Shown one piece after another: positions 2,113-52,993 of a DNA stretch of 52,993 nt. The stretch is from Candidatus Yanofskybacteria bacterium RIFCSPLOWO2_01_FULL_39_28 (GTDB lineage Bacteria; Patescibacteriota; Minisyncoccia; 2-02-FULL-40-12; GWA2-44-9): positions 1-52,993 of the forward strand of contig MGKE01000008.1 in NCBI GenBank assembly GCA_001794635.1, read 5' to 3'. The translations under genes were made by a program, and so were the position numbers. The notes beneath the pieces are model-generated. The model did not search any database, was not told the DNA's origin, and was given only the letters and a program-made list of their open reading frames with translations. How positions within the stretch are numbered: position 1 is the first letter of the stretch; each line of letters starts with the position of its first letter.

Positions 2113-3552
2113 ATGCTCAATTTTGACCGCTATCATGCCACCATGGGCAATTTTTCTCTGACTGACCATGCCAAGCTTCCATCAGGTAAACTTCTAGCTG
2201 ATGAAATGACAACTTTTTATGTTACTCAAAGAAAACTCAAGTTTGCCCCGTGTGTTGGCCACGATCGTCTCAAAGCTGCTCTTCGTGAAACAGAATTAGA
2301 TGTTCCCCATCTTGATTTTTTAAGAAGAGACAAGGCAAATCTTTCTTTGCTAGCTGATAAACTGTCGTCGGCTTCAAAACATGATTTTGAGGTTAGGGCC
2401 GTAACACCTGGAACAATTATGTTCAGCGGTGAGCCAATTGCTGACATAACTGGCCCCTTCTGGTTCACCCAAATGCAAGAAGTTAAATTTGAACACGCTT
2501 TTGACGAACCGATGACAGTGGCCAGTAGAGCATTAAAAGTAAGGAGAGCCGCTGGCGACAAACATGTTTCCGGTTTTTCACTAAGAAGAGACGGGAGCGC
2601 GGAACGATCTCTTGAGGTAAATAAGTACGCTTACATCGGTGGGTTTGATGACACTTCTTTCATGGAAGCGGCTTACCAGCTTGGTATTAACCCTGTTGGA
2701 ACAATCGCTCATTACTATATCCAGGCCTTTTTGGAATTTTTGTATGCCCTTCATCCGGAAAGAGATCCTCAAGGAAGAAAAAAGCATTTTGAGCAAATAG
2801 CTTTTGAGAAATGGTTGGATGCCAATCCCAACGGCACTACACTCCTTCTAGATACGTTACTGCTCAAACATGGCATAATCCACGCCATCCGAGCGGCTAA
2901 AAGTTCAGACGCCAGACGAAAAGCCCTAAAGTTTGTCCGGATTGATTCTGGGGATTTGCCTAAAAATACGCTTTGGATCAGGCGAATGCTTGACGCAAAC
3001 AATATGAAAGATGTCGGGATTATGGTTACATCGGATCTTGATGATCAAAAAATTAGAGAAATTGTCCAGACATGCTGTGACGTGGATGGATTCGGTGTCG
3101 GAACTAAGTTAATCGCCGAAGTTGAATCAGTAGCCGGAGTTATTTTCAAAATGTGCAAAATCGGTAAACAAGCTACTATGAAACTGTCTGAAAACCCCGA
3201 GAAAGGAACTTTGCCTGGCAAAACACAGGTTTGGCGGTTTATTGATAATGAAGGATTCTACATAAAAGACGTTATAACAATGGATATGGAGGTGCCTTTA
3301 AAAGAAAATTACGCTTCAGTTGCCGCTCTGCTTAGACCCTTTTTCGGAAGAAACAACCCTGATCCGTGGGTTCCAAACATTCACGATCAGCGTCAATTTG
3401 TTATTGAACAAATGAAACACTTCCGAGACATAGAAAACTATCCCGTTGAACTAAGCTCTTCTCTTCAAATCTCCATCGCAAACCTGCGAAAACGCCTATT
3501 GGAAGATGAGATGGGTGAAGAAGATGTGGTAATGGTTGATTACCCTGAATAA
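2113..3552 (+). CDS. pncB: Nicotinate phosphoribosyltransferase
   Basis: FSLRR, GTIAH (phospho-His), VRIDSGD, TSDLD, FGVGT, MKLSENPEKGTLPG motifs; start moved from 2077 to the SD-supported ATG. Confidence 0.85.
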   Translation: MLNFDRYHATMGNFSLTDHAKLPSGKLLADEMTTFYVTQRKLKFAPCVGHDRLKAALRETELDVPHLDFLRRDKANLSLLADKLSSASKHDFEVRAVTPGTIMFSGEPIADITGPFWFTQMQEVKFEHAFDEPMTVASRALKVRRAAGDKHVSGFSLRRDGSAERSLEVNKYAYIGGFDDTSFMEAAYQLGINPVGTIAHYYIQAFLEFLYALHPERDPQGRKKHFEQIAFEKWLDANPNGTTLLLDTLLLKHGIIHAIRAAKSSDARRKALKFVRIDSGDLPKNTLWIRRMLDANNMKDVGIMVTSDLDDQKIREIVQTCCDVDGFGVGTKLIAEVESVAGVIFKMCKIGKQATMKLSENPEKGTLPGKTQVWRFIDNEGFYIKDVITMDMEVPLKENYASVAALLRPFFGRNNPDPWVPNIHDQRQFVIEQMKHFRDIENYPVELSSSLQISIANLRKRLLEDEMGEEDVVMVDYPE

Positions 3553-12193: not shown

Positions 12194-12625
12194 TTAGTAT
12201 TCTCGCTCTTCGCCAAAAATCATAAATGAAGGAGTGTCTTGATGACGCTTTTTTGTTTGAGAATCACTATTCTCTTTTTTTTCTTCGCAATCCCTGCATC
12301 TAGCGGCAAAAGGAAGAGCTGCTAAACGTTTAATGCTAATATTGTGTCCACAATCTAAACAAATACCATATATTCCCTCATCAAAACGCCGGATTGCTTC
12401 GTTGAATCTTTTCAATGTTTCACTATTAAGTCTAGCCAGAGAATCTTCCACACAATCACGATTCTGTTGATCGGCTTGATCAGCCGAGTCACCTAAAACT
12501 CGCTTAATTTCGTTATCAGTTCCAGAAGCAATAACTGCTTTGGTTTTAATGCTTAGTTTAGTTTCCAAAGCATCTCGCTTTTCAACAAGTATACGGCGGA
12601 CATCTTTTCTGTTTCGCTCGGCCAC
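12194..12625 (-). CDS. dksA: DksA/TraR C4 zinc-finger protein
   Basis: DSADQA coiled-coil tip; YGICLDC...RL.ALP...CRDC. Confidence 0.85.
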   Translation of the reverse strand: MAERNRKDVRRILVEKRDALETKLSIKTKAVIASGTDNEIKRVLGDSADQADQQNRDCVEDSLARLNSETLKRFNEAIRRFDEGIYGICLDCGHNISIKRLAALPFAARCRDCEEKKENSDSQTKKRHQDTPSFMIFGEEREY

Positions 12626-12709
12626 TTTGGTCTCCCTTACCGTAAAAGGACTGACTTAATTTATAGCATTTGTAATGAAGAATGTCCACCCCGCACCTTG
12701 AAGTTGAAG

Positions 12710-12747
12710 ATTGTCATAAAATAGGCAATTGCTTATTTTATGACAAT
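12710..12747. repeat. 38-bp near-perfect palindrome, copy 1
   Basis: ATTGTCATAAAATAGGCAA|TTGCTTATTTTATGACAAT; 37/38 identical to 46780-46817. Confidence 0.9.
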
Positions 12748-12763
12748 GGAAAATTGTAAATTT

Positions 12764-12944: not shown

Positions 12945-14354
12945 TTAAATTATATCACTATTTGAGATAAAAGTCAATATGCCGAGAGATCCCCACAAAA
13001 CCAGACTTCCCTGCTGGATAGTTAAGAAAAGATGGTCAAAAAACCCAATAAAAAGCAGAGAACAGAAGAAAACTAGAAAAGATAACTGATACGGTCTTTG
13101 TAAATTAGTTTTTAAAATAAAATCTTTAATAATATAAATTAAAAAAACAACGAAAGATAAAATGCCCAAAACCCCAGTTTCAGAATAAACAAGCAGATAG
13201 ATATTATGCACCGGCTGATAAGTATAATTAGGCAAGTTGGATTTATTTTCAGCCAACCAGCCGACGAAATTACCGATTCCAACGCCAAACAAATTAAATC
13301 CTATTTTTAAAGATTCCTTGGCATAAAACGTCCTCAATTCAATCGCTTGGTCTTCGCCACTAATCGTAAGCCGAACTTTAATTTCATTAAAGTAAAAAGA
13401 ACTGAAAATAACCAAGACACAAAAACTGACCAACAAAATAGCTTTAATTCTTTTACGACCATCTTTAGTGCCAAAACTTAAACGATAGTTACGGCGAAGC
13501 CGAATTATAATCACTCTAAGACAAAAAGATGCAAACCAAACAAAGATAATCGTTCTGGAAAACGTAGTAAGAAAGGCAAGGAGTAAAACACCGTAAAAAA
13601 CCAGTGTGACCTTGTCCCGTAAAGGGACGTGGTCCCAACGGGACTTTACGTCCCAACTATCGGCTAGAGGTTGATGTTCTGAGTGAAGGCGGGAATATAA
13701 ATAAATAAAGTAAAAAGAAAAGAGAGCTAGAAAAAGATAAACAGCCAAAACATTGGGATGAGGAGTTGTGCCATAAACACGAATAACCTTTTCTCCTGTC
13801 GGAAGATAAAATGAAGCGATTCCCGACAAATCAGAATTAATAATACTTTCGCCGAGAAATCTTAAACCAGTGCTTGATTGTTTAAAAAATTGGATAATTG
13901 CTATGACTGATTGGAAAATTCCTCCGACAAAAATAGCCAAAAAAGAATTGTAAAGGCCAAACTTTTTTAAAGCATAATTTACTAGATACCAATAAAAAAC
14001 CGAAAATTCTAACAACTTTAGCCATTGAAACCAACTGACTATCGGATTAGTTGAGTTTGTGATTGAAATAGCAGAAACAGCAAGAAAAATAATTAAAAAA
14101 TACTCATAAACTTTAAAATTTTGAATTGCACTTTTTATTTTTAACTTTTTACTTTTAACTTTAGGTGTCGTGGATAGAAAACTATTATATAGCCAAAACA
14201 AGAAAAGTATAAAAAACAAAACATCCGTAAAATATATGGACACCGACGTCCACTCATTGAACCGCCAGCCTTCATACCACAAAATTTTCCTAGTTTGGAA
14301 AGGAATTGAGAAAAGTAATAAATAAAAAAGATATTTTTCTAGTTTTTTGAACAT
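12945..14354 (-). CDS. O-antigen ligase/polymerase (Wzy_C) family membrane protein
   Basis: R.YGT..HPN.LA, TFSR, GVGIGNF, PVHNIYL..E.G, FDH. Confidence 0.88.
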   Translation of the reverse strand: MFKKLEKYLFYLLLFSIPFQTRKILWYEGWRFNEWTSVSIYFTDVLFFILFLFWLYNSFLSTTPKVKSKKLKIKSAIQNFKVYEYFLIIFLAVSAISITNSTNPIVSWFQWLKLLEFSVFYWYLVNYALKKFGLYNSFLAIFVGGIFQSVIAIIQFFKQSSTGLRFLGESIINSDLSGIASFYLPTGEKVIRVYGTTPHPNVLAVYLFLALFSFYFIYLYSRLHSEHQPLADSWDVKSRWDHVPLRDKVTLVFYGVLLLAFLTTFSRTIIFVWFASFCLRVIIIRLRRNYRLSFGTKDGRKRIKAILLVSFCVLVIFSSFYFNEIKVRLTISGEDQAIELRTFYAKESLKIGFNLFGVGIGNFVGWLAENKSNLPNYTYQPVHNIYLLVYSETGVLGILSFVVFLIYIIKDFILKTNLQRPYQLSFLVFFCSLLFIGFFDHLFLTIQQGSLVLWGSLGILTFISNSDII

Positions 14355-17436: not shown

Positions 17437-17509
17437 GTGTATCTTGCCCGTCAGTAAAATCTGACGGGTTTTTATTTTATAAAAACCAACTGATGGTTAC
17501 GGTCGAGAA

Positions 17510-17697
17510 ATCGAGCCCAGCCCTTGGCCATCTGAAGCAATTGAGACCCCGAGGTCGCTGGATGATATAATATTGGCCGTTTTAGGCCAAATCAGCCAGC
17601 GACCAGAGGGGCGAACTTAGCTGAGGCGACGAGGCAGCTCCGGAGGAGTGCCGAGGAGCCGGAGGCGTGCTGAAGATGGCTTAGGGCTGGGCGAGAT
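17510..17697 (+). repeat. Rod-shaped structured element, copy A
   Basis: Core 17523-17688 nearly identical to 23432-23600; self-complementary ends. Confidence 0.92.
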
Positions 17698-17728
17698 GGA
17701 TGAAGAATTAGTAAGGTGAGAGCAATTT

Positions 17729-18877
17729 TTACCTCGTAAATAATGTATAACCAATACCGCCGGCAAAGATAAAAGCCAAGAGATATAACGTCCAAGCGGG
17801 AATTCGTAGACTATATTCCGGAACCCTGTCGCCATGTGATTTTGCTTTGATATACATGAATATAAGAATGAAGGCCTCAAGTCCAATCCCAACTGCTCCG
17901 GCCAAACTAATAACGTCAATAAAATTCCTTAATCCTCCCAAAAACAAAACAAAAGGCGGAGTAACAACCAATAACCACGATATTTTTCTTCCAAACCCAT
18001 AATCAAGCATGAAAACCTCAAGTAAAGCAGTGCTAAGCATAAGATACGAAGTACTGACAGCCATAATACCGAATAAAGAACCAAGAAATACTATTCGTCC
18101 GCCAATTTGGTCAATCAGGCCGCTAATAGCATCGGGAGTAGTTGAATCACCGGAAATCCCTAAAACGGTAAGCCCAAAAACAAAATACAAAATCGCAACT
18201 AATAATACTGAGGCAAAGATAGCTTTCTTAAAATAATTCTCACTACCAGTAAGGATCCGGCGTTGAATCGGTATCGCCGACAAACCGCCAAAAGCAAAAA
18301 GTAAAACTCCGTAAGGAAAGAACCAAAACTCAAGATTTACATACGAATAGTTTGAAAGATTAACATCCCCTATTCCAAAACCAAAGATAAGGCCGATAAC
18401 GGCAATGAAAAGAAAAGAAAGCCCAAGTTCCACCCAAGCTACCGTTCTGATACCAAGCAAAACCAAAAAAGAAGCAATGCCAAAAAACCAGATACTAAAA
18501 CTGCTGGGAGACAAATAAAAAACAGAGGATAAGACATTCGGTAAAAATTCACCGGCAATAATAATATAAGCAAGCAGGGCGGCATAAGTTGTCAGGAGCA
18601 AAGAAAAGAAAAGCAGTCGTTTCCAGAAATTGCCAAGATAAAGCTGGGTATAACCAACCATCTGATGGGGCTGATGAGTTCTCAGAATAACTTCGCCGTA
18701 AATAAAGTATAAAAACAAGGTAGCCAGTCCGGTACCAATCAAAAACAAAAAACCGATCCAGAAACCGGCTTTAGCAAAGGCGAACGGAATTCCAAAAACC
18801 CCGACCCCAACCATTGTTCCAATTAATACGGCCGTTGCCTGAAGGAATGGCTTATTTTTCAGAATCTGAATCAACAT
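17729..18877 (-). CDS. Aromatic amino-acid permease (Mtr/TyrP-like)
   Basis: GTMVGVGVFGIPF..AKAG, YGVLLFAFGG; about 11 TM. Confidence 0.88.
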   Translation of the reverse strand: MLIQILKNKPFLQATAVLIGTMVGVGVFGIPFAFAKAGFWIGFLFLIGTGLATLFLYFIYGEVILRTHQPHQMVGYTQLYLGNFWKRLLFFSLLLTTYAALLAYIIIAGEFLPNVLSSVFYLSPSSFSIWFFGIASFLVLLGIRTVAWVELGLSFLFIAVIGLIFGFGIGDVNLSNYSYVNLEFWFFPYGVLLFAFGGLSAIPIQRRILTGSENYFKKAIFASVLLVAILYFVFGLTVLGISGDSTTPDAISGLIDQIGGRIVFLGSLFGIMAVSTSYLMLSTALLEVFMLDYGFGRKISWLLVVTPPFVLFLGGLRNFIDVISLAGAVGIGLEAFILIFMYIKAKSHGDRVPEYSLRIPAWTLYLLAFIFAGGIGYTLFTR

Positions 18878-19388
18878 GATGAACACCCTCCTTTAATTCT
18901 CCGAAAATCCCTTCTCCTCTATATCGCATTTCTCTAGTCAAATATTTCTCAACCAACCAAAGTCCGCCTAAAACCAGATAAACAATCAGGGTTGTAATAA
19001 TAGCGGCTGAATACATTCCTAAACCACTGGCAATACCGACTATTGCTACCGCCCAAAGACTGGCCGCAGTTGTAGTCCCTTCAATTTTGCTTTCCCTTCT
19101 CAAGATCGTGCCGGCGCCAATAAAACCAATGCCGACGATAATATTGGCGATAAGATGATAGTCAAAACCATATTCCCCGTTAACCGATGGATAATTCTCA
19201 AAAAGATATATGGAAATTACACTCGCCAATGCTGCGCCCAAGCAAACAAGAATATGAGTTCTCAAGCCAGCTACTTTTCCAGAACGCTCTCGCTCAAATC
19301 CAACAATCCCGCCAAGCAAAGTAGCTACTAGAAGCTTGTCTATGGTGTCAAAATCTAATTTAGACAAAATATCGGTCAGCCATTCCAT
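18852..19388 (-). CDS. MgtC/SapB family protein
   Basis: GFERE...AGLRTH, GIGFIGAG, TTAASLW. Confidence 0.92.
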   Translation of the reverse strand: MEWLTDILSKLDFDTIDKLLVATLLGGIVGFERERSGKVAGLRTHILVCLGAALASVISIYLFENYPSVNGEYGFDYHLIANIIVGIGFIGAGTILRRESKIEGTTTAASLWAVAIVGIASGLGMYSAAIITTLIVYLVLGGLWLVEKYLTREMRYRGEGIFGELKEGVHHVDSDSEK

Positions 19389-19448
19389 AGACTTAAGATT
19401 AGAATATTTAAAAAAACAAAACAACTAAAATTGTGAACATTTCAATTA

Positions 19449-21785
19449 CTACTTGAGAGCTATCTTGAGGACATCTTCCATTGTTTTAGCAAAATAGAAC
19501 TTCATGTCTTTTTTAATTTCTTTGGGAATATCCTCCATGTCTTTTTTATTCTCTGCCGGAAGAATTACGACTTTAAGCCCGGCTCGGTGAGCGGCCAAAA
19601 CTTTTTCTTTAACTCCGCCAATTCCCAACACCTTGCCGCGAAGCGTTACTTCTCCGGTCATGCAGACTTCTTTCTTGAAAGGTTTTTTCAAAAACATGGA
19701 TATAAGAGCAGTTGTTATGGTAATACCGGCTGATGGTCCGTCTTTTTTGATTCCCCCTTCAGGAACATGGATGTGAATATCATCTCCGCTAAAATCTTCT
19801 TTCACACCAAATTTTGCTGAATAAGCCCGAGCAAAACTCAAGGCGGCTAAAGCCGATTCTTTCATCACTGATCCCAATTGACCAGTTATGGTAAGTTTTC
19901 CCTTGCCAGGCATTTTAGTAACTTCAATATCCAAAATCTCTCCCCCAACCGGCGTCCAACCAAGACCAGTAGCCCGACCAATCTCGTCCTTAGTTTCAGC
20001 CATCTGGTGAGAATATTTTGCCGGACCAAGATAATTATGTACCGTTTCTTTGGTTACGGTTATTTGTTTATGAGAAGACGATTCAACGAGTTTTCTTGTA
20101 ATTTTTCTGGCAATCGCCGCCAGTTGGCGCTCCAAGTCTCGGACCCCAGCTTCTCGAGTGTGTTTTTGAATAATATCTGAAAGAGCTGAGTCAGAGAAAG
20201 TTAAAGCTCTTTTTTTGAGCCCATGTTCAATAAACAACTTGGGTAAAAGAAAGTTTTTGGCAATATGCAGTTTTTCCATTTCAGTATAGCCGGGAAAGGG
20301 AATAACTTCTAAACGGTCTCTCAAAGCTGGAGGGATTGTTTCAAGAACATTAGCTGTAGTGATAAACATTACTTCTGACAAATCAAAAGGCACTTCAAGA
20401 TAATGATCTGAAAAAGAATTGTTTTGTTGCGGATCTAAAGCTTCCAAAAGCGCCGCTGAAGGGTCACCGCGGAAATCCATGCCAATTTTATCTATTTCAT
20501 CAAGCATAAAAACAGGATTCTTGACTCTAGCCGTATTGAGACCCTGTATTATTCTTCCCGGTAAAGCGCCGACATAAGTCCTTCGGTGGCCCCTGATTTC
20601 AGCTTCGTCTCTTAAACCGCCCAGAGACACCCTGACAAATTTGCGCCCCAACGCTTTGGCAACAGATTGGCCGATTGAGGTTTTGCCAGTGCCAGGCGGA
20701 CCGACAAGACAAAGAATCGGCCCTTTTAATTTACCGACTTGTTTCTGGACAGCTAAATATTCAAGGACCCGTTCTTTAACTTTGGTTAAACCGTAATGAT
20801 CTTGGTTTAAAACTTTTTCCGCTGTCTTGAGATCTATTTTCTCTTTTGTTTTTTTAGACCAAGGCAATTCTACAATCAAATCCAAATAAGTTCTCAAATA
20901 TGATACTTCCGGATTAAAAGGAGGCATTTTCATCATACGGTTTAACTCTTTGGTCGCCTTTTCTTTAACTTCCTTAGGCATTCCGGCTGATTCAATCTTG
21001 GTTCTCAAACCATTAAATTCATCTTTTTCATCGTCAACACCAAGCTCTTTTTCAATGCTTTTCAGCTGTTCCCGCAAAAATAATTCTTTTTGCATCTTGC
21101 CGATTTGTTTTTTGGTTTCTTTGGTAACAACTTTTTCAGCTTCTGATATTTCAATCTCACGGGTTAAAAAATAGTTAAGCTTTTTCAGGGCTTCAACTGG
21201 ATTTACGGCCTCAAGAATACTCTGCTGGTCTTGAATTTCCAGGCCCAAATTTACCGTAACCAAGCTGACTATTTGGTCGGTGTCTTTAATTTGAGACATC
21301 ATATAAATTATTTCCGGAGACACTGACGGGAAAGATTTGAATTCAGAAATAGTGCGGAACTGGTCTATCACTAATCTGGTCAAAGCCCTTTCTTCAAGAT
21401 CATCACCGCTCGTTCCTTTGCCGGCCATCGGCTCAAATTTAACTTTAAAAAACGGCTCTTCGCTGGAAAAATCAGATATTCTGGCTTTAACCAGTCCTTC
21501 TACGTCAACCTTTGACGAGCCGTCGGGTAGTTTAAAAGTGGAAACTATTCGGCCCACAGTGCCGACCCGGAATAAATCAGGAGTCTGAACATTGTCTTCA
21601 ATGTTTTTCTGAGTAACAAAAAACACCAATCTTTCATTGGTCATTGCTTGTTCCAACGCCGTCATTGATTTGGGCCTTTGAACAATAAGGGGAATTACAA
21701 CTTTCGGGAAAAGAACGGTGTTTTTAAGTGCTATCAACGGTAATTCCTCCGGAATAAATATATTGTTTATTTTAAAATTCGGCAT
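19449..21785 (-). CDS. lon: ATP-dependent Lon protease
   Basis: GPPGTGKT, DEIDK, KDGPSAG, GGVKEK. Confidence 0.98.
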   Translation of the reverse strand: MPNFKINNIFIPEELPLIALKNTVLFPKVVIPLIVQRPKSMTALEQAMTNERLVFFVTQKNIEDNVQTPDLFRVGTVGRIVSTFKLPDGSSKVDVEGLVKARISDFSSEEPFFKVKFEPMAGKGTSGDDLEERALTRLVIDQFRTISEFKSFPSVSPEIIYMMSQIKDTDQIVSLVTVNLGLEIQDQQSILEAVNPVEALKKLNYFLTREIEISEAEKVVTKETKKQIGKMQKELFLREQLKSIEKELGVDDEKDEFNGLRTKIESAGMPKEVKEKATKELNRMMKMPPFNPEVSYLRTYLDLIVELPWSKKTKEKIDLKTAEKVLNQDHYGLTKVKERVLEYLAVQKQVGKLKGPILCLVGPPGTGKTSIGQSVAKALGRKFVRVSLGGLRDEAEIRGHRRTYVGALPGRIIQGLNTARVKNPVFMLDEIDKIGMDFRGDPSAALLEALDPQQNNSFSDHYLEVPFDLSEVMFITTANVLETIPPALRDRLEVIPFPGYTEMEKLHIAKNFLLPKLFIEHGLKKRALTFSDSALSDIIQKHTREAGVRDLERQLAAIARKITRKLVESSSHKQITVTKETVHNYLGPAKYSHQMAETKDEIGRATGLGWTPVGGEILDIEVTKMPGKGKLTITGQLGSVMKESALAALSFARAYSAKFGVKEDFSGDDIHIHVPEGGIKKDGPSAGITITTALISMFLKKPFKKEVCMTGEVTLRGKVLGIGGVKEKVLAAHRAGLKVVILPAENKKDMEDIPKEIKKDMKFYFAKTMEDVLKIALK

Positions 21786-21831
21786 TTCTAGAATATTTTA
21801 ATAAATTTTGAGAAAAAGTCAACCAATCAAC

Positions 21832-22563
21832 TTAGTAGTACCAATCTTCTCTTGGTGGGGCATCTTTTATGAGTTCAAAGGCCTCTTCGGCTGTATCAAC
21901 TATTTTATAAATAAGAAAATCTTCTTTATCTATTGTCTTGTACTCTTGATATAGAACATTTTTTAAACAATTATCTATGTGGCCCCAGTAATCTGTTCCT
22001 ACTAGAACAACTGGTATTTTTTCTGATATTTTTTTGGTTTGGATCAAAGTTATCAACTCAAAAACTTCATCCAACGTTCCCAGCCCGCCAGGAAAAAATA
22101 CATACGCCCGAGCGGCAAAAGAAAGCATGACTTTTCTTACAAAAAAATAATGGAAAGCTGCGCTTTCCTGGACATAGGGATTTATTCTTTGTTCCATTTC
22201 AAGCTGGATATTTAATCCGATTGACTTGCCTCCGCCCTCAACCGCTCCCCGATTGCCTGCTTCCATAATACCGGGACCGCCGCCAGTAACTACGGCAAAC
22301 CCGTCTTCAGCCACCATTTTACCCAGCTTACGGGCTTCTTCATACCATCTATCACCTTCAACGGTTCTTGCAGAACCAAAAAAGGACACTGTTTTTTTAA
22401 AATCAGCTAAAAATTGCCAACCATCAACAAATTCAGAAAGTATCCTAAACACTCTCCAGTGAAGTGAAGTCCTGAAATCTTCCCCCGGTTTAGGTTTTGG
22501 CTTTGGCGGCGGTAGTTTGGAAGCCGGAAGATTTAGCTTGCTCTTTTTAATACCATTAGTCAT
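21832..22563 (-). CDS. LOG family nucleotide phosphoribohydrolase (TIGR00730-like)
   Basis: FGSAR, TGGGPGIMEA, PGGLGTLDE. Confidence 0.92.
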   Translation of the reverse strand: MTNGIKKSKLNLPASKLPPPKPKPKPGEDFRTSLHWRVFRILSEFVDGWQFLADFKKTVSFFGSARTVEGDRWYEEARKLGKMVAEDGFAVVTGGGPGIMEAGNRGAVEGGGKSIGLNIQLEMEQRINPYVQESAAFHYFFVRKVMLSFAARAYVFFPGGLGTLDEVFELITLIQTKKISEKIPVVLVGTDYWGHIDNCLKNVLYQEYKTIDKEDFLIYKIVDTAEEAFELIKDAPPREDWYY

Positions 22564-22612
22564 AATAAATTTATCTTACAACTTTGAGGATATTTTTGAA
22601 GAGGATAACTTA

Positions 22613-22840
22613 GCTCGCCCCCACCTCATCTTCATCAAAGGACTACGCCTCATGGAGTCCTTACAGTCGCAGAGGTTATATTTTCTCTGACCAATGGTGG
22701 TTGCCCCCGGTCAGGCCATGCGGATCGGCCAAAATCCCGACCGAGCCTGACCACCCCCATTGGACTCCCAGGAAAATATAACCTCTGCTCCTTAATGACT
22801 ATCTATTCGTTGTATTGATTCAGATGAGATGGGGCTACGC
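22613..22840 (-). ncRNA. 228-nt rod-like structured RNA candidate (6S-like, or divergent copy D of the rod element)
   Basis: Closing stem CCCCATCTCATCT/AGATGAGGTGGGG, central bubble, 17-bp stem GCAGAGGTTATATTTTC/GAAAATATAACCTCTGC, apical stems. Confidence 0.6.
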
Positions 22841-22953
22841 AATATTGACGGCTAAAAGGTTTCAAAAATGGTACGGAAAGGATTCGCTGTGATTTTTTTA
22901 TACAAAACTTGCAAAGTTAATAAAAATGTGATATAATCTGAAACGAGGTGAAT

Positions 22954-23226
22954 ATGTCGCCACTCCCAGTGAGATCAGGTCGATTAGAGGATCCGGTTTT
23001 CCTAGAAGAATTTCGACTACACATTGTCTCGGAACTTCTGGAACTGGTCACCCATCCTGGTTCTGGATATGGCTCCAGAGCTAGCGAAATTTACACTCGC
23101 TTTGACAACGAAGGACAACTTCCTCTTAGTGACAGACTCGTAGACGGTATGTTTGTAAGATGCTGTCAGGAAATCAGACTAACTCCTGACGAAATCAACC
23201 AACTCCAATCCCAATGGTTTTCCTAA
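22954..23226 (+). CDS. Hypothetical protein
   Basis: Promoter TTGCAA-17-TATAAT (22909-22937), SD GAGG, terminator at about 23273-23312. Confidence 0.7.
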   Translation: MSPLPVRSGRLEDPVFLEEFRLHIVSELLELVTHPGSGYGSRASEIYTRFDNEGQLPLSDRLVDGMFVRCCQEIRLTPDEINQLQSQWFS

Positions 23227-23418
23227 AAGTTATCCTTCTAACTCAACTGATCAACATCTGCCAAATTATACAAGCCTCGCATGGTTAATCACCACACGAG
23301 GCTTTTTTGTTTTCACGAAAAAATATAAAAATTGCGTTGCCTTAGGTTTTCTGAAACCTTTGACAAACATGTTAAACATCGAGTGTTTAACATTGCTTTA
23401 ATAATTTGAACCGCAAAC

Positions 23419-23609
23419 AGCGAGTGAAGCTCTTGGCCATCTGAAGCAATTGAGACCCCGAGGTCGCTGGATGATATAATATATTGGCCGTTTTAGGCCA
23501 AATCAGCCAGCGACCAGAGGGGCGAACTTAGCTGAGGCGACGAGGCAGCTCCGGAGGAGTGCCGAGGGAGCCGGAAGCGTGCTGAAGATGGCTTAGGGCT
23601 TCGCTCGCT
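23419..23609 (+). repeat. Rod-shaped structured element, copy B
   Basis: Near-identical core to copy A, with a different but self-complementary outer stem. Confidence 0.92.
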
Positions 23610-23613
23610 CACA

Positions 23614-24984
23614 CTACAACTCGAAACCTTCTCCCATCTCCGGTACAAATGTTTCCACGTTAAATTCTTCTCTTATTTTACCAGATAAAACTGAACTGGA
23701 ATGGTATTCGCCGTGAATAATAAAAACTTTTTTAAGATTGCCGTCTTGTTTGGCTTTACCGACCCAATCTATCAACATTACCTGGTCGGCGTGAGCCGAA
23801 TAGCCCTCTATTGACCGAACTGAACAATTAACCTGAACCTTCTGACCAAGAATTTTAACTTCTTTCTTGCCATCTAATATTTGTCTTCCCGGTGAACCTT
23901 CAACCTGATAACCGACAAAAAGAATCGTGGAATTAGGATCAGGCAAATATTCCCTCTCGTGGTAAAGTATTCTACCCCCCAGTGACATCCCCGAACCGGC
24001 AATAATTATTTTAGAAAATTTTATATCATTGATTGCCTTAGATTCCTGACTTGAAAAAGTAAGATGAAGTCCTGGAAAATTAAATATATCGTCACCCGTT
24101 CTAATGTCATGGATAACTTTTTTGTTAAAATAACGCTCATAGTTTTTGTAAACTTTGGTTAATTTAATCGCTAAAGGCGAATCTAGAAATACCGGAATTT
24201 TGGGTAAAGTTTCATGTTCTATAAGTTCATTAATTTCATAAATTAACTCCTGAGTCCGTTCAATGGCAAACGTTGGAATCATTAACGTTCCGCCTTTTTT
24301 GACTGTTTCCTCTATTACTTGCCGTAAAATTTCTTTCTTATCCACGTTTTTATCATGCAACCGATCACCATAGGTTGATTCTACGACAACATAATCGGCC
24401 TGGTTAGGCATATCATAGTGCTTAAGAAGCGGAACCGGATAATTACCCAGGTCTCCTGAAAAATAAATACTCTTTGACACTCCGGTTTCTTCTTTCCAGT
24501 TTATTTCAATTATGGCCGATCCCAATATGTGGCCAGCATCATGAAAAATAGCTTTAATATCTTGGCCTAAATCCAACTCTTCTCCATACTCAACCCCTTG
24601 TGACAAAAGAAAGGCCTGATGCAAGTCTCCAGAGCTAAATAAGGGATCGTGGCCATCTTTTTTTGCTTCGTCTTTTATAAGATCCATATTATCGTCAAGG
24701 GCAATGGCCGATAAATCAATGGTCGGTTTCGTTGCAAAAAATTTTCCCCGAAAACCCTCTTTATATAATTTGGGCAATCGGCCAGAATGATCGGCATGAC
24801 TGTGAGTAAGCAAAACAAAATCTATTTCTTTCGGATCGTAAGCAAATGAAGAATAATTTAATGTCTCAGCAAATTTGGAACCCTGGAAAAGTCCGCAATC
24901 AACCAAAATCTTTTTTCCTTTGTGTTCAAGTAAAAAATTGGATCCTGTTACTTGTTGAGTAGCGCCGTAAAATGAAATTTTCAT
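23614..24984 (-). CDS. MBL-fold beta-CASP ribonuclease
   Basis: THSHADH, AGHILGS, SGD, ESTYGDR, SAHAD, HGE. Confidence 0.95.
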   Translation of the reverse strand: MKISFYGATQQVTGSNFLLEHKGKKILVDCGLFQGSKFAETLNYSSFAYDPKEIDFVLLTHSHADHSGRLPKLYKEGFRGKFFATKPTIDLSAIALDDNMDLIKDEAKKDGHDPLFSSGDLHQAFLLSQGVEYGEELDLGQDIKAIFHDAGHILGSAIIEINWKEETGVSKSIYFSGDLGNYPVPLLKHYDMPNQADYVVVESTYGDRLHDKNVDKKEILRQVIEETVKKGGTLMIPTFAIERTQELIYEINELIEHETLPKIPVFLDSPLAIKLTKVYKNYERYFNKKVIHDIRTGDDIFNFPGLHLTFSSQESKAINDIKFSKIIIAGSGMSLGGRILYHEREYLPDPNSTILFVGYQVEGSPGRQILDGKKEVKILGQKVQVNCSVRSIEGYSAHADQVMLIDWVGKAKQDGNLKKVFIIHGEYHSSSVLSGKIREEFNVETFVPEMGEGFEL

Positions 24985-37478: not shown

Positions 37479-37590
37479 TTTAAAATTAAAAATTAAAAAC
37501 TCAAAACTACAATTCAAAATCTAAAATTTATTTAATAAATTTTGAATTTTAACCTGAAATTTTAACTTTTAAATTTTTACTTTTAACTAT

Positions 37591-43895: not shown

Positions 43896-43968
43896 TCCGC
43901 CCAGTAGGAGTCGAACCTACGACCCTCTCGTTAAAAGCGAGCTGCTCTACCAACTGAGCTATGGGCGG
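43896..43968 (-). tRNA. tRNA-Lys(UUU)
   Basis: Cloverleaf CCGCCCA/TGGGCGG, loop CTTTTAA, GGTTCGACTCC; CCA not encoded. Confidence 0.95.
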
Positions 43969-46705: not shown

Positions 46706-46779
46706 GGATACTATAAGTATCTAGTTTTGAGTAAATAAATCAAGCTCGCTCAAAGACTCAAGTTTATTATTTATTGTAA

Positions 46780-46817
46780 ATTGTTATAAAATAGGCAATT
46801 GCTTATTTTATGACAAT
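46780..46817. repeat. 38-bp palindrome, copy 2
   Basis: One mismatch to 12710-12747. Confidence 0.9.
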
Positions 46818-46848
46818 CTAAAAAACGCTCATATTTGAGCGTTGTAAA

Positions 46849-52069: not shown

Positions 52070-52993
52070 TTGATTACTGAGTTAGGTGAATAATGCGGTT
52101 ATCCCACTCATCCACTCAAGAATTTCCATGATGCTGGTAAGGTAGCAGTTGGCACGGAAGTTCTTGAGATGACGAGTTCTCTCTTCACCAAGTCTGAAGA
52201 CCCGCTTCTTTCTCGAAAAATATCTCTCAATCTCTGATCTTTTGTTAAGAAAGCTTCGGTTAAGGGTTCTACCTCCCTCTTTTCCTTTCCGATTTCTGGT
52301 AATGGCTTCCGAAGTCAGGCCGACAACCTCTTTGTGAGTGCGTCTGACTGGGATGCCGACTTTGGCATGTTTCCATTTTTGTTTAGCTTTGAAAACTAAT
52401 TCTTCTCCGTCATAGCCCATATCAGCTAGAAAACTTTTGACCTTTTTCCTCCATTCTTTAGGCGAACCACGAATTAAGTTTTTACCGAGCATAATATCTG
52501 ATCTGGCTCCAGGAGTAGCCACCTGAAGTAATGGCAATCTGGTCTTAAAATCAATCATTTGATGAAGTTTAAAGCCATTTTTCTCCTTGTAGCCATTGTA
52601 TTCGGAACCAATCTCATCTTTCTTGGAATATGTTTCGACAAAGGATGAATCAACAATTAGATTTAACTTTTCTCGGTTCTTCACTATCCAAGAAACCAAG
52701 GTTTTGAATATTACAGGAAACCACAGTTTTTTAATCAATCTCTGCCTGAATTTTACAAAGGTTGTATGGTCTATCCCAGACATACTCTCTAAATCTCGGT
52801 AACTGCAACCTTGAACTTGTCGATACATCAGCCAACAGAACATGATTACTTTATCATAGCCTTTTCGACCTCTGGGATTCGACCCCAGAAACTTACTGAG
52901 AGTTTTTCTTACTGTTGGATTGTTCATCCATTGAAATCGGGCATAGACTGGGATAGGATTAAAAGAACAAGAAGCGCCTATTTGGTTAAATGG
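52070..52993 (-). mobile_element. Insertion sequence (other end probably outside the window)
   Basis: Intact transposase; no matching inverted-repeat pair visible in the window. Confidence 0.65.
52082..52927 (-). CDS. DDE transposase (IS4/IS5-like)
   Basis: VDSS, GFKLH, ADMGYD, R.EIER.F. Confidence 0.9.
   Translation of the reverse strand: MNNPTVRKTLSKFLGSNPRGRKGYDKVIMFCWLMYRQVQGCSYRDLESMSGIDHTTFVKFRQRLIKKLWFPVIFKTLVSWIVKNREKLNLIVDSSFVETYSKKDEIGSEYNGYKEKNGFKLHQMIDFKTRLPLLQVATPGARSDIMLGKNLIRGSPKEWRKKVKSFLADMGYDGEELVFKAKQKWKHAKVGIPVRRTHKEVVGLTSEAITRNRKGKEGGRTLNRSFLNKRSEIERYFSRKKRVFRLGEERTRHLKNFRANCYLTSIMEILEWMSGITALFT

Follow-up and report, generated by a model that had tools for sequence, protein, structure and literature searches.

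A dispersed structured repeat family in Candidatus Yanofskybacteria with selection on the fold of one strand

What are the two near-identical, self-complementary sequences that lie on a 52,993-nt contig (MGKE01000008.1; here 'the window', the whole stretch that was analysed) of Candidatus Yanofskybacteria bacterium RIFCSPLOWO2_01_FULL_39_28 (assembly GCA_001794635.1), a member of the Candidate Phyla Radiation (CPR; Patescibacteria)? An initial annotation, made from the letters of the window, treated them as copies A and B of one rod-shaped element and proposed a non-autonomous mobile structured RNA or single-stranded DNA (ssDNA) element, or a repeated non-coding RNA family. Our analysis places them in a family of structured repeats in which selection acts on the fold of one strand, the plus strand of A and B. 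The reading we favour, to which we give a probability of roughly 55%, is a previously undescribed, lineage-specific family of dispersed, non-coding structured elements under selection at the RNA level.

The positions of both copies were verified. A covariance model built from nine copies (model R1) matches exactly four places in the source genome (G000; 815 kb in 15 contigs, 39% G+C, 86% complete), namely A, B and two further copies, C and D. The copies in the window are:

17510..17697, + strand: copy A, whole element, with outer rod stem ATC-GA-GCCCAG / CTGGGC-GA-GAT, P1-P3 rod, three-way junction and two arms; R1 158.2 bits, E = 8.6e-44 for 17521-17688
23419..23609, + strand: copy B, whole element, with an outer stem that is fully Watson-Crick or G-U; R1 148.3 bits
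14359..14503, - strand: copy D, same junction and rod, short arms, a TGCATGG loop and no TATAAT; R1 66.1 bits, E = 9.9e-17

By BLAST within the genome, the cores of A and B share 97% identity over 173 bases, and a repeat search of the window recovers the pair as two direct-repeat blocks, 98% and 94% identical; both agree with the near-identical cores first described at these places. The copy number is higher than the two that had been seen. Copy C, on contig C14, is 79% identical by BLAST, copy D shares both ends and the middle motifs with A and B, and relatives hold up to 11 copies. The element is GC-rich and measures 145–190 bases. One other BLAST match (C14:19370-19392) lies inside a gene for an L32-like ribosomal protein and is due to chance.

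Folding predicts a common architecture. As RNA, the plus strand of copy A reaches -110.4 kcal/mol (z -9.63), a value that none of 200 shuffles equals; the opposite strand reaches -94.7 kcal/mol (z -8.86), and the plus strand with DNA parameters -53.4 kcal/mol (z -7.48). From the outside inward, the predicted fold consists of an outer stem, helices P1 and P2, a G-A/G-A tandem, the 4-bp helix P3 and a three-way junction, from which two arms leave (P4-P5 and P6-P7). The rod, ∼35 bp in all, is broken by sheared-type G-A tandems. The arms vary freely between copies in length and sequence yet stay paired, and the element spans about 100–210 nt across the family by the limits of R1. The long rod of the first description therefore stands, but its inner end is a three-way junction that bears two variable hairpin arms. 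By reading, the fold reuses one module, in which a helix is followed by 0–1 bulged base, then GA opposite GA, then a second helix. This module is present in the outer stem, in P6, at P2/P3 and in the junction loop, and in many copies also in P4. The GA/GA tandems listed at the outset (CATCT-GA-AGCA/TGCT-GA-AGATG, CCCC-GA/GA-GGGG and ATC-GA/GA-GAT) can be read in the sequence and reappear on folding. In copy A the conserved strands are placed as follows:

17540..17546, + strand: junction strand ATTGAGA, paired through its first base to base 6 of CGAACTTA; across the family UNGAGA hardly varies, and pair 25-190 covaries
17613..17628, + strand: junction strand CGAACTTA, then GCT-GA-GGC, the 5′ side of arm P6 with a G-A tandem
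17658..17680, + strand: GCC-GGA-GGC-G-TGCT-GA-AGATGGC, the 3′ sides of P6, P3 and P2 with G-A tandems

Is the fold itself under selection? We aligned 76 metagenome matches to R1, which gave 56 distinct rows, and scored 44 pairs. Standard pairs fill 93.9% of the cells, compared with 71.3% in column shuffles and 33–43% when partners are slid. Compensatory changes on both sides occur in 35 of the 44 pairs (0 of 500 shuffles as high), and no shuffle among the 500 reaches any of the five measures used. Covariation in a larger alignment, the mark of a conserved structured RNA, is thus present; its lack would have refuted the initial annotation. The junction strands hardly vary. The 5′ strand UNGAGA is invariant in 53–54 of the 54 rows that have a letter (columns 26 and 28–31), and these columns lay outside every search pattern; the remaining junction strands read CGAAY-N-UA, with GA opposite GGA in P6. 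Junction pair 25-190, which joins the first base of the 5′ strand to base 6 of the second, occurs as CG (19), UA (19), AU (13), GC (1) and other combinations (2).

The pairs also indicate which strand is selected. G-U occupies 110 pair cells and A-C 14, whereas a neutral palindrome or a duplex-DNA inverted repeat should give the two equally, so the plus strand is the selected one. The G-A tandems argue likewise, because on the other strand they become pyrimidine-pyrimidine mismatches. Selection acts on the fold of one strand, the plus strand of A and B, and the original preference for single-strand folding over terminal inverted repeats (TIRs) of the kind found in miniature inverted-repeat transposable elements (MITEs) is upheld by these counts and by the 35 compensated pairs.

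The outer stems had been described as copy-specific, wholly different from each other and self-pairing. The pairing stands (GCCCAGCCC with GGGCTGGGC, and AGCGAGTGAAGC with GCTTCGCTCGCT), but the stems are homologous and not wholly different. When copies are set side by side, the outer stem emerges as a family-wide extension of the rod of ∼11 bp, with (A)AGCG-N-AGG on the 5′ strand and CC-N-GAGCG on the 3′ strand. Copies A (ATCGAGCCCAG / CTGGGCGAGAT) and B (AGCGAGTGAAG / CTTCGCTCGCT) carry variants of it, and in copy B a change in the 3′ outer strand turns the G-A tandem into Watson-Crick pairs. Compared with the core, the outer stem and P1 evolve much more quickly, and their changes are always compensated. 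A given P1 type may occur with different arm types in different genomes, which suggests that modules are exchanged between copies. By comparison of the copies, then, the outer stems are a quick-changing, homologous part of the element and not target DNA. Insertion into the loop of pre-existing terminator hairpins, considered as a source of these stems, was dropped in view of the common CGAR core and the few types that recur across genomes.

The family is narrowly distributed. We examined 61 genomes, comprising the source genome, 36 others of its family and 24 in three sister families of the order. BLAST finds relatives of the element in nine of them and R1 matches 13, with 1–11 copies each; these include 12 of the 36 other family members and none of the 24 sister-family genomes. 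R1 counts 11 copies in G026, nine in G006, five in G018, four each in G000, G004 and G005, three in G033, two each in G001 and G030, and one each in G003, G008, G009 and G010. A pattern scan of prokaryotes (one genome per species) returned 27 stretches, of which 26 fit the model (27 model matches), all from records that bear the title Candidatus Yanofskybacteria or, in the case of some TPA assemblies, Candidatus Saccharibacteria; the remaining stretch, from Paenibacillus, is a chance match in coding DNA with no model match. The same scan of metagenomes gave 78 stretches, 71 of which hold 76 model matches. Among viral contigs, none of 44 pattern matches fits the model at its place, and a single 15.1-bit match falls elsewhere in L114; plasmid and phage collections gave no blastn match to the element. 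On these sequence searches, the family is confined to one CPR family, in records titled Candidatus Yanofskybacteria.

No described family accounts for the element. Searched against Rfam 15 at gathering thresholds, the window yields a tRNA (43896-43968) and nothing else. With E relaxed to 10, the segment 17300-17900 gives four matches, the best at 17.8 bits against a threshold of 49.5 bits, and only one of them, weak, falls within the element (sR53, 10.5 bits). An Rfam identity, which the initial annotation had named as grounds for refuting it, is therefore absent at the gathering threshold, with nothing meaningful at E up to 10. We found no account of such an element in the literature on noncoding RNA in Patescibacteria or Parcubacteria, on RNA motifs or on Yanofskybacteria, a search that did not extend to supplementary motif lists.

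Copies occupy intergenic DNA and favour gene ends. Pooled by common flanking genes, the 90 distinct copies form 46 locus groups, with a median gap of 21 nt on the 3′ side versus 243.5 nt on the 5′ side. Of the 43 groups with a 3′ neighbour, 31 have it on the opposite strand, and in 18 of these 31 its convergent stop codon lies no more than 12 nt from the model end, that is, inside the outer stem. The surroundings of A and B include:

17446..17479, + strand: terminator-like hairpin and T run of the plus-strand open reading frame (ORF) upstream of A; outside the element, bounding the upstream spacer
17729..18886, - strand: convergent neighbour of A, a Trp/Tyr permease family gene
23614..24984, - strand: convergent neighbour of B, a gene for a beta-CASP metallo-beta-lactamase RNase

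Both copies lie just past the stop of a minus-strand gene, as first reported, at 32 nt from the rod end in A and 4 nt in B. Copy A thus sits between a plus-strand ORF with its terminator-like hairpin and the stop of the permease gene, whereas copy D has a terminator on one side and the start of an O-antigen-ligase-like gene on the other. The neighbours have little in common: any given flanking protein family is found at 7 of the 90 loci at most, and the few that recur represent orthologous loci. The small ORFs that precede A and B are not related and lack Pfam matches. After the rod, the T share is ∼0.4–0.47 on the plus strand and ∼0.45 on the other, and no terminator is predicted at the rod ends of A, B or D. 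In 12 groups the downstream gene is co-oriented, and the gap carries that gene's own -10-like hexamer 7–9 nt before the ATG; we therefore dropped the idea that the element serves as promoter of such genes. A TATAAT-like hexamer is often found at this distance from the ATG of genes downstream of copies (L221, L086, L089, L165 and others), which suggests leaderless mRNAs in the lineage.

Within the element, a second motif resembles a bacterial promoter. TAnAAT occurs at a fixed place in the first arm of 75 of the 90 copies, and TGn precedes it in 43 of these. In the window it is found at:

17563..17571, + strand: TGATATAAT of copy A, an extended -10-like motif 19 nt after TTGAGA; in the predicted fold T-12 is paired and -11 to -7 are unpaired
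23472..23480, + strand: TGATATAAT of copy B

The short copies lack the hexamer: D, the amplified type of G026 and some others. The motif is displayed in two architectures. In one it stands 19 nt after TTGAGA in an asymmetric internal loop, and in the other it occupies a terminal loop 26–27 nt after the junction. In minimum-energy folds, positions -11 to -7 are all unpaired in 58 of 73 copies, and at least five of the six bases before the hexamer are paired in 68 of 73. The variants TAAAAT and TACAAT keep A at -11 and T at -7, and differ only at the least constrained position of the sigma-70 -10 consensus. The motif looks like something that an RNA polymerase holoenzyme would recognise, either as a duplex promoter firing 3′-ward or as a single-stranded mimic on display.

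How do copies come to be where they are? After the stop of the orthologue of B's neighbour, no element is present in five of five congeners. The same holds for the orthologue of A's neighbour in three of three readable congeners (G001, G002 and G004); in a fourth, G006, a partial copy lies at a contig end ∼750 nt off, oppositely oriented. A comparison of filled and empty sites, proposed with the initial annotation, thus finds A and B missing at the matching congener sites. Other sites are held in common: one is filled in both G001 and G006, and one in both G006 and G030, which belongs to another genus (flank proteins 60–64% identical). Upstream of the same FtsK-like gene (proteins 73% identical), G004 has a full copy and G005 a 3′-truncated one. 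The truncated copy (L017 1480-1560, G005:C7) ends 8 nt after its TGGTATAAT, with the FtsK-like gene 57 nt downstream, and a reverse transcriptase (RT) gene (337-aa ORF) lies just upstream of it.

The nearest relative of a copy is in its own genome for 26 of 37 rows, and at the site common to G001 and G006 each copy resembles the paralogues of its own genome rather than the other genome's copy. Together, the empty sites, the filled sites and the likeness within genomes suggest that the family gains and loses sites, keeps some of them for long and is homogenised within genomes. Gain or movement of copies is suggested indirectly, by the empty congener sites and by copy numbers of 1–11. The initial proposal accordingly holds up as to a structured repeat family with a strand-specific fold, and as to mobility only in this indirect way. 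Logan contigs of four DNA runs break inside copies, as expected for a repeat, and one spans copy B unchanged; among these contigs none was seen to join across an empty site. One contig in each of two DNA runs contains a joint (17549->17659) that skips 109 bases of the copy A arms; with 20 letters on its shorter side it is too weak to read, and could reflect a shorter variant or a copy from some other organism.

What would the folded molecule be, and what might it do? We consider it probably RNA, at odds of about two to one over ssDNA, because of the conserved multi-helix junction, the covarying junction pair, the tolerance of G-U and the GNRA-like loops. In the scheme we favour, the selected molecule would be an RNA of ∼150–200 nt, transcribed through the element, whose folded form would be a module for protein binding or processing at the ends of genes. 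Insertion or duplication would on rare occasions create new copies, which recombination with one another would then homogenise within each genome. A sigma-70-type RNA polymerase would recognise the TGnTAnAAT of the first arm; the simplest form of this is an internal promoter directed toward the 3′ side.

Several observations weigh against this scheme. A strong terminator-like hairpin precedes each of A, B and D, and no consistent promoter was seen upstream of the copies, so that transcription of the full-length plus strand is hard to explain. An internal promoter would yield the 3′ half only, which is unable to form the covarying rod, and TAnAAT is not found in 15 of the 90 copies (three of them unreadable, at a locus edge). 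The fold is stable as DNA too (z -7.48), and G-T wobble, tandem G-A pairs and GNA loops suit ssDNA. The alignment has limits as well: its rows are related by descent, so that the shuffle counts are not probabilities, and columns 184-197 and 286-295 of the alignment (A5) are uninformative, since they were fixed by the search pattern and their invariance is in part an effect of ascertainment.

The alternative that survives best, though we hold it to be unlikely, takes the folded strand as ssDNA. The element would then be a non-autonomous relative of HUH/Y1 elements (IS200/IS605, REP-RAYT), or an ssDNA site for polymerase in priming or transcription, in which a duplex reaching to -12, followed by unpaired -11 to -7, would serve as a pre-opened -10. 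Such a site would suit the strand-specific fold and its stability with DNA parameters, the many tandem G-A pairs and GNA/GNRA-like loops, the absence of visible promoters upstream of copies, and a TGnTAnAAT that 58 of 73 copies, from both arm architectures, display with -11 to -7 unpaired. However, with the -10 unpaired there are no opposing template bases, and transcription from the folded form is hard to picture. The ends show neither a conserved target tetranucleotide nor a subterminal hairpin pair, and the opposite orientations of A/B and D within 10 kb of co-oriented genes do not fit a strict link to the replication strand. Well-known ssDNA promoters and minus-strand origins (F plasmid Frpo, the minus origin of filamentous phages, rolling-circle sso) are folded, strand-specific rods of 150–300 nt, in which the holoenzyme reads -35/-10-like boxes with a partly unpaired -10; they are found on plasmids and phages, one per replicon. 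The present element is instead chromosomal and multicopy, was not found in the viral and plasmid collections, has its -35-like TTGAGA in the junction and lacks the -10-like box in the 15 copies already mentioned.

Enzymes of the relevant classes do not follow the element either. Y1 transposase genes are present in nine of the 13 element-bearing genomes, but also in 23 of the 48 genomes without it (Y1_Tnp in 32 of 61 overall), and none was found in G000, G004 (100% complete), G006 or G008, all of which have copies. TnpB was found in none of five element-bearing genomes. The RT family RVT_1 is present in 46 of the 61 genomes and missing from the element-bearing G004, G006 and G010, so that a retron-type arrangement, with an RT adjacent or present, does not describe the family. 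The linked HUH/RAYT or RT gene that the initial annotation recommended looking for thus has no counterpart that tracks the element in the 61 genomes, and its impression that no cognate enzyme is evident extends to every transposase, RT and neighbouring gene we tested. The RT genes are ∼340–360 aa long in the 46 genomes, and the genes in the 32 are Y1-type transposase or RAYT-like.

An improbable further reading combines the fold and the motif: the folded plus strand, as RNA or ssDNA, would be a mimic of an opened promoter that captures the sigma-70-type holoenzyme, a multicopy 6S-like decoy or landing pad at gene ends. The mimic would present TG at -15/-14 in a duplex ending at T-12, followed by unpaired A-11 to T-7, an arrangement kept in both arm architectures. 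6S RNA (RF00013) is likewise ∼180 nt long and largely double-stranded, with a part that resembles an opened promoter (duplex, then an unpaired -10-like stretch). It differs in having a central bubble between two coaxial stems rather than a three-way junction, and the element differs from it in its 1–11 copies, its presence in only 13 of 61 relatives and the lack of a template strand opposite the -10-like stretch. RF00013 has no match to the element and none in any of the 61 genomes, and with 6S undetected throughout, its absence cannot be correlated with the element.

We think it equally improbable that the element is an ordinary MITE, whose rod would represent TIRs bound in trans by a DDE transposase, whose inner remnant would keep the transposase promoter, and whose covariation would reflect subfamilies with matched ends. 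Inverted ends, small size, many intergenic copies and presence that varies between congeners would all fit, and the internal TTGAGA-19 nt-TGnTATAAT resembles a promoter left in a deletion derivative. However, no target-site duplication (TSD) is evident: by reading, no direct repeat flanks A, B or the other listed copies, in keeping with the first impression of these sites. The ends are inverted-complementary but carry a fixed asymmetry of GA opposite GA in all lineages, which as duplex is non-complementary, and their sequence is not conserved between copies. The excess of G-U over A-C (110 to 14) is not expected of duplex-DNA inverted repeats, and the inner arms and the junction pair covary as well. 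No long, ORF-bearing version was seen in the loci examined, where solitary matches to the 5′ motif are chance hits in coding DNA.

Candidate transposases for a MITE are sparse. DDE_Tnp_1 occurs in one of five element-bearing genomes, as the IS4-like gene at the window end in G000 (52082-52927), and rve-type genes occur in two of the five (G006 and G026), which may count in favour; IS110 was found in none of the five. The IS4-like DDE_Tnp_1 ORF (minus strand, Pfam E = 2.1e-19) runs to the contig end, and a BLAST search with the element finds no similarity there. G004, 100% complete and with four copies, has none of RVT_1, Y1_Tnp, TnpB, IS110, DDE_Tnp_1 and rve.

No more plausible is that the reverse complement is the functional form, as a 3′ untranslated region (UTR) of the convergent gene in which a hairpin after the stop would end transcription or block 3′ exonucleases, in the manner of REP or ERIC sequences. 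The convergent 3′ neighbours (31 of 43 groups) and close stops (18 of 31) speak for it, as do the well-folded reverse strand (-94.7 kcal/mol, z -8.86) and the moderately A-rich bases before the 5′ end, which amount to ∼45% T after the rod on the other strand. However, this T enrichment is weak and alike on both sides, and on the reverse strand the 110 G-U pairs become C-A mismatches and all G-A tandems become pyrimidine-pyrimidine. The downstream gene is co-oriented in 12 of 43 groups, and a terminator needs no conserved three-way junction. A catalytic RNA of a new self-cleaving class is very unlikely, despite invariant junction bases beside freely covarying stems in a multicopy, patchy family. 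Such ribozymes typically show a three-way junction with few invariant bases, free outer stems and many copies in a genome. However, Rfam ribozyme families give no match even with E relaxed to 10, nothing hints at a cleavage site, and by reading the junction strands (NUWGAGA, CGAAYNUA and G) misfit the hammerhead core, the strand from third to first helix being G and the 7-nt strand being off at three essential positions.

The structured-RNA family that we favour has its closest general parallels among the small dispersed structured intergenic repeats, such as ERIC/IRU, the Correia elements of Neisseria, bcr1 of Bacillus cereus, BOX and RUP of pneumococci and RPE of Rickettsia. These are non-coding, multicopy sequences of 100–200 nt near gene ends. 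As imperfect palindromes they fold upon transcription, promoter-like boxes are present in some, and many have no identified mobilising enzyme. The element is like them in size, copy number and intergenic position at gene ends. It is unlike them in its three-way junction with a covarying pair, its G-A modules, its strand-specific selection, the lack of a visible TSD and its restriction to one CPR family.

The G-A modules invite another comparison. TIGR-Tas systems, described for CPR bacteria, comprise arrays of stem-loop guides with G-A motifs of the K-turn or box C/D type (PMC12045711). K-turns, box C/D motifs and TIGR-Tas arrays share with the element recurring tandem sheared-type G-A pairs that flank helices. 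In the element, however, the bulge beside the G-A tandem has 0–1 nt rather than 3, and the L7Ae family (PF01248) is above its cut-off in none of the 61 genomes. The element also consists of dispersed singletons whose variable parts are paired stems, whereas the arrays have unpaired guide segments.

Why should such an element matter? CPR genomes are among the smallest and most compact known, and with selection on structure at up to eleven sites, a 150–200-nt element is unlikely to be junk. It represents a new RNA-like architecture without a described relative, with a three-way junction, repeated G-A modules and more than 30 covarying pairs. Its placement at the stops of convergent genes is strikingly specific, and it has a polymerase-recognition motif built in. 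It also offers an entry point to gene-end regulation, non-coding RNA and genome dynamics in mostly uncultured bacteria; members of the lineage are reported as symbionts or parasites of methanogenic archaea. Were the element shown to mimic a promoter and bind polymerase, to act as a ribozyme or to move as RNA without an enzyme, it would constitute a new class.

Some loci contain additional repeats. In G026, copies at L079, L073, L084, L078 and L080 lie within a larger mosaic: ∼20 nt upstream they are joined to the 5′ fragment of a different copy, and repeats of a second, unrelated family stand just downstream or, inverted, upstream. In G006 (L099 = G006:C40, and L075 at about 2950-3400), another repeated segment starts right after gene stops; the L075 instance is joined to the last third of the element, at its 3′ end. 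The window itself holds two further repeats. A 50-nt repeat (12704-12753 and 46774-46823, 90% identical) contains an operator-like palindrome of ∼36 bp, and one of its copies lies just upstream of a small zinc-finger gene, DksA/TraR-like by reading (12194-12625, - strand). The other is an AT-rich 67-nt direct repeat at 14094-14160 and 37522-37588, 75% identical.

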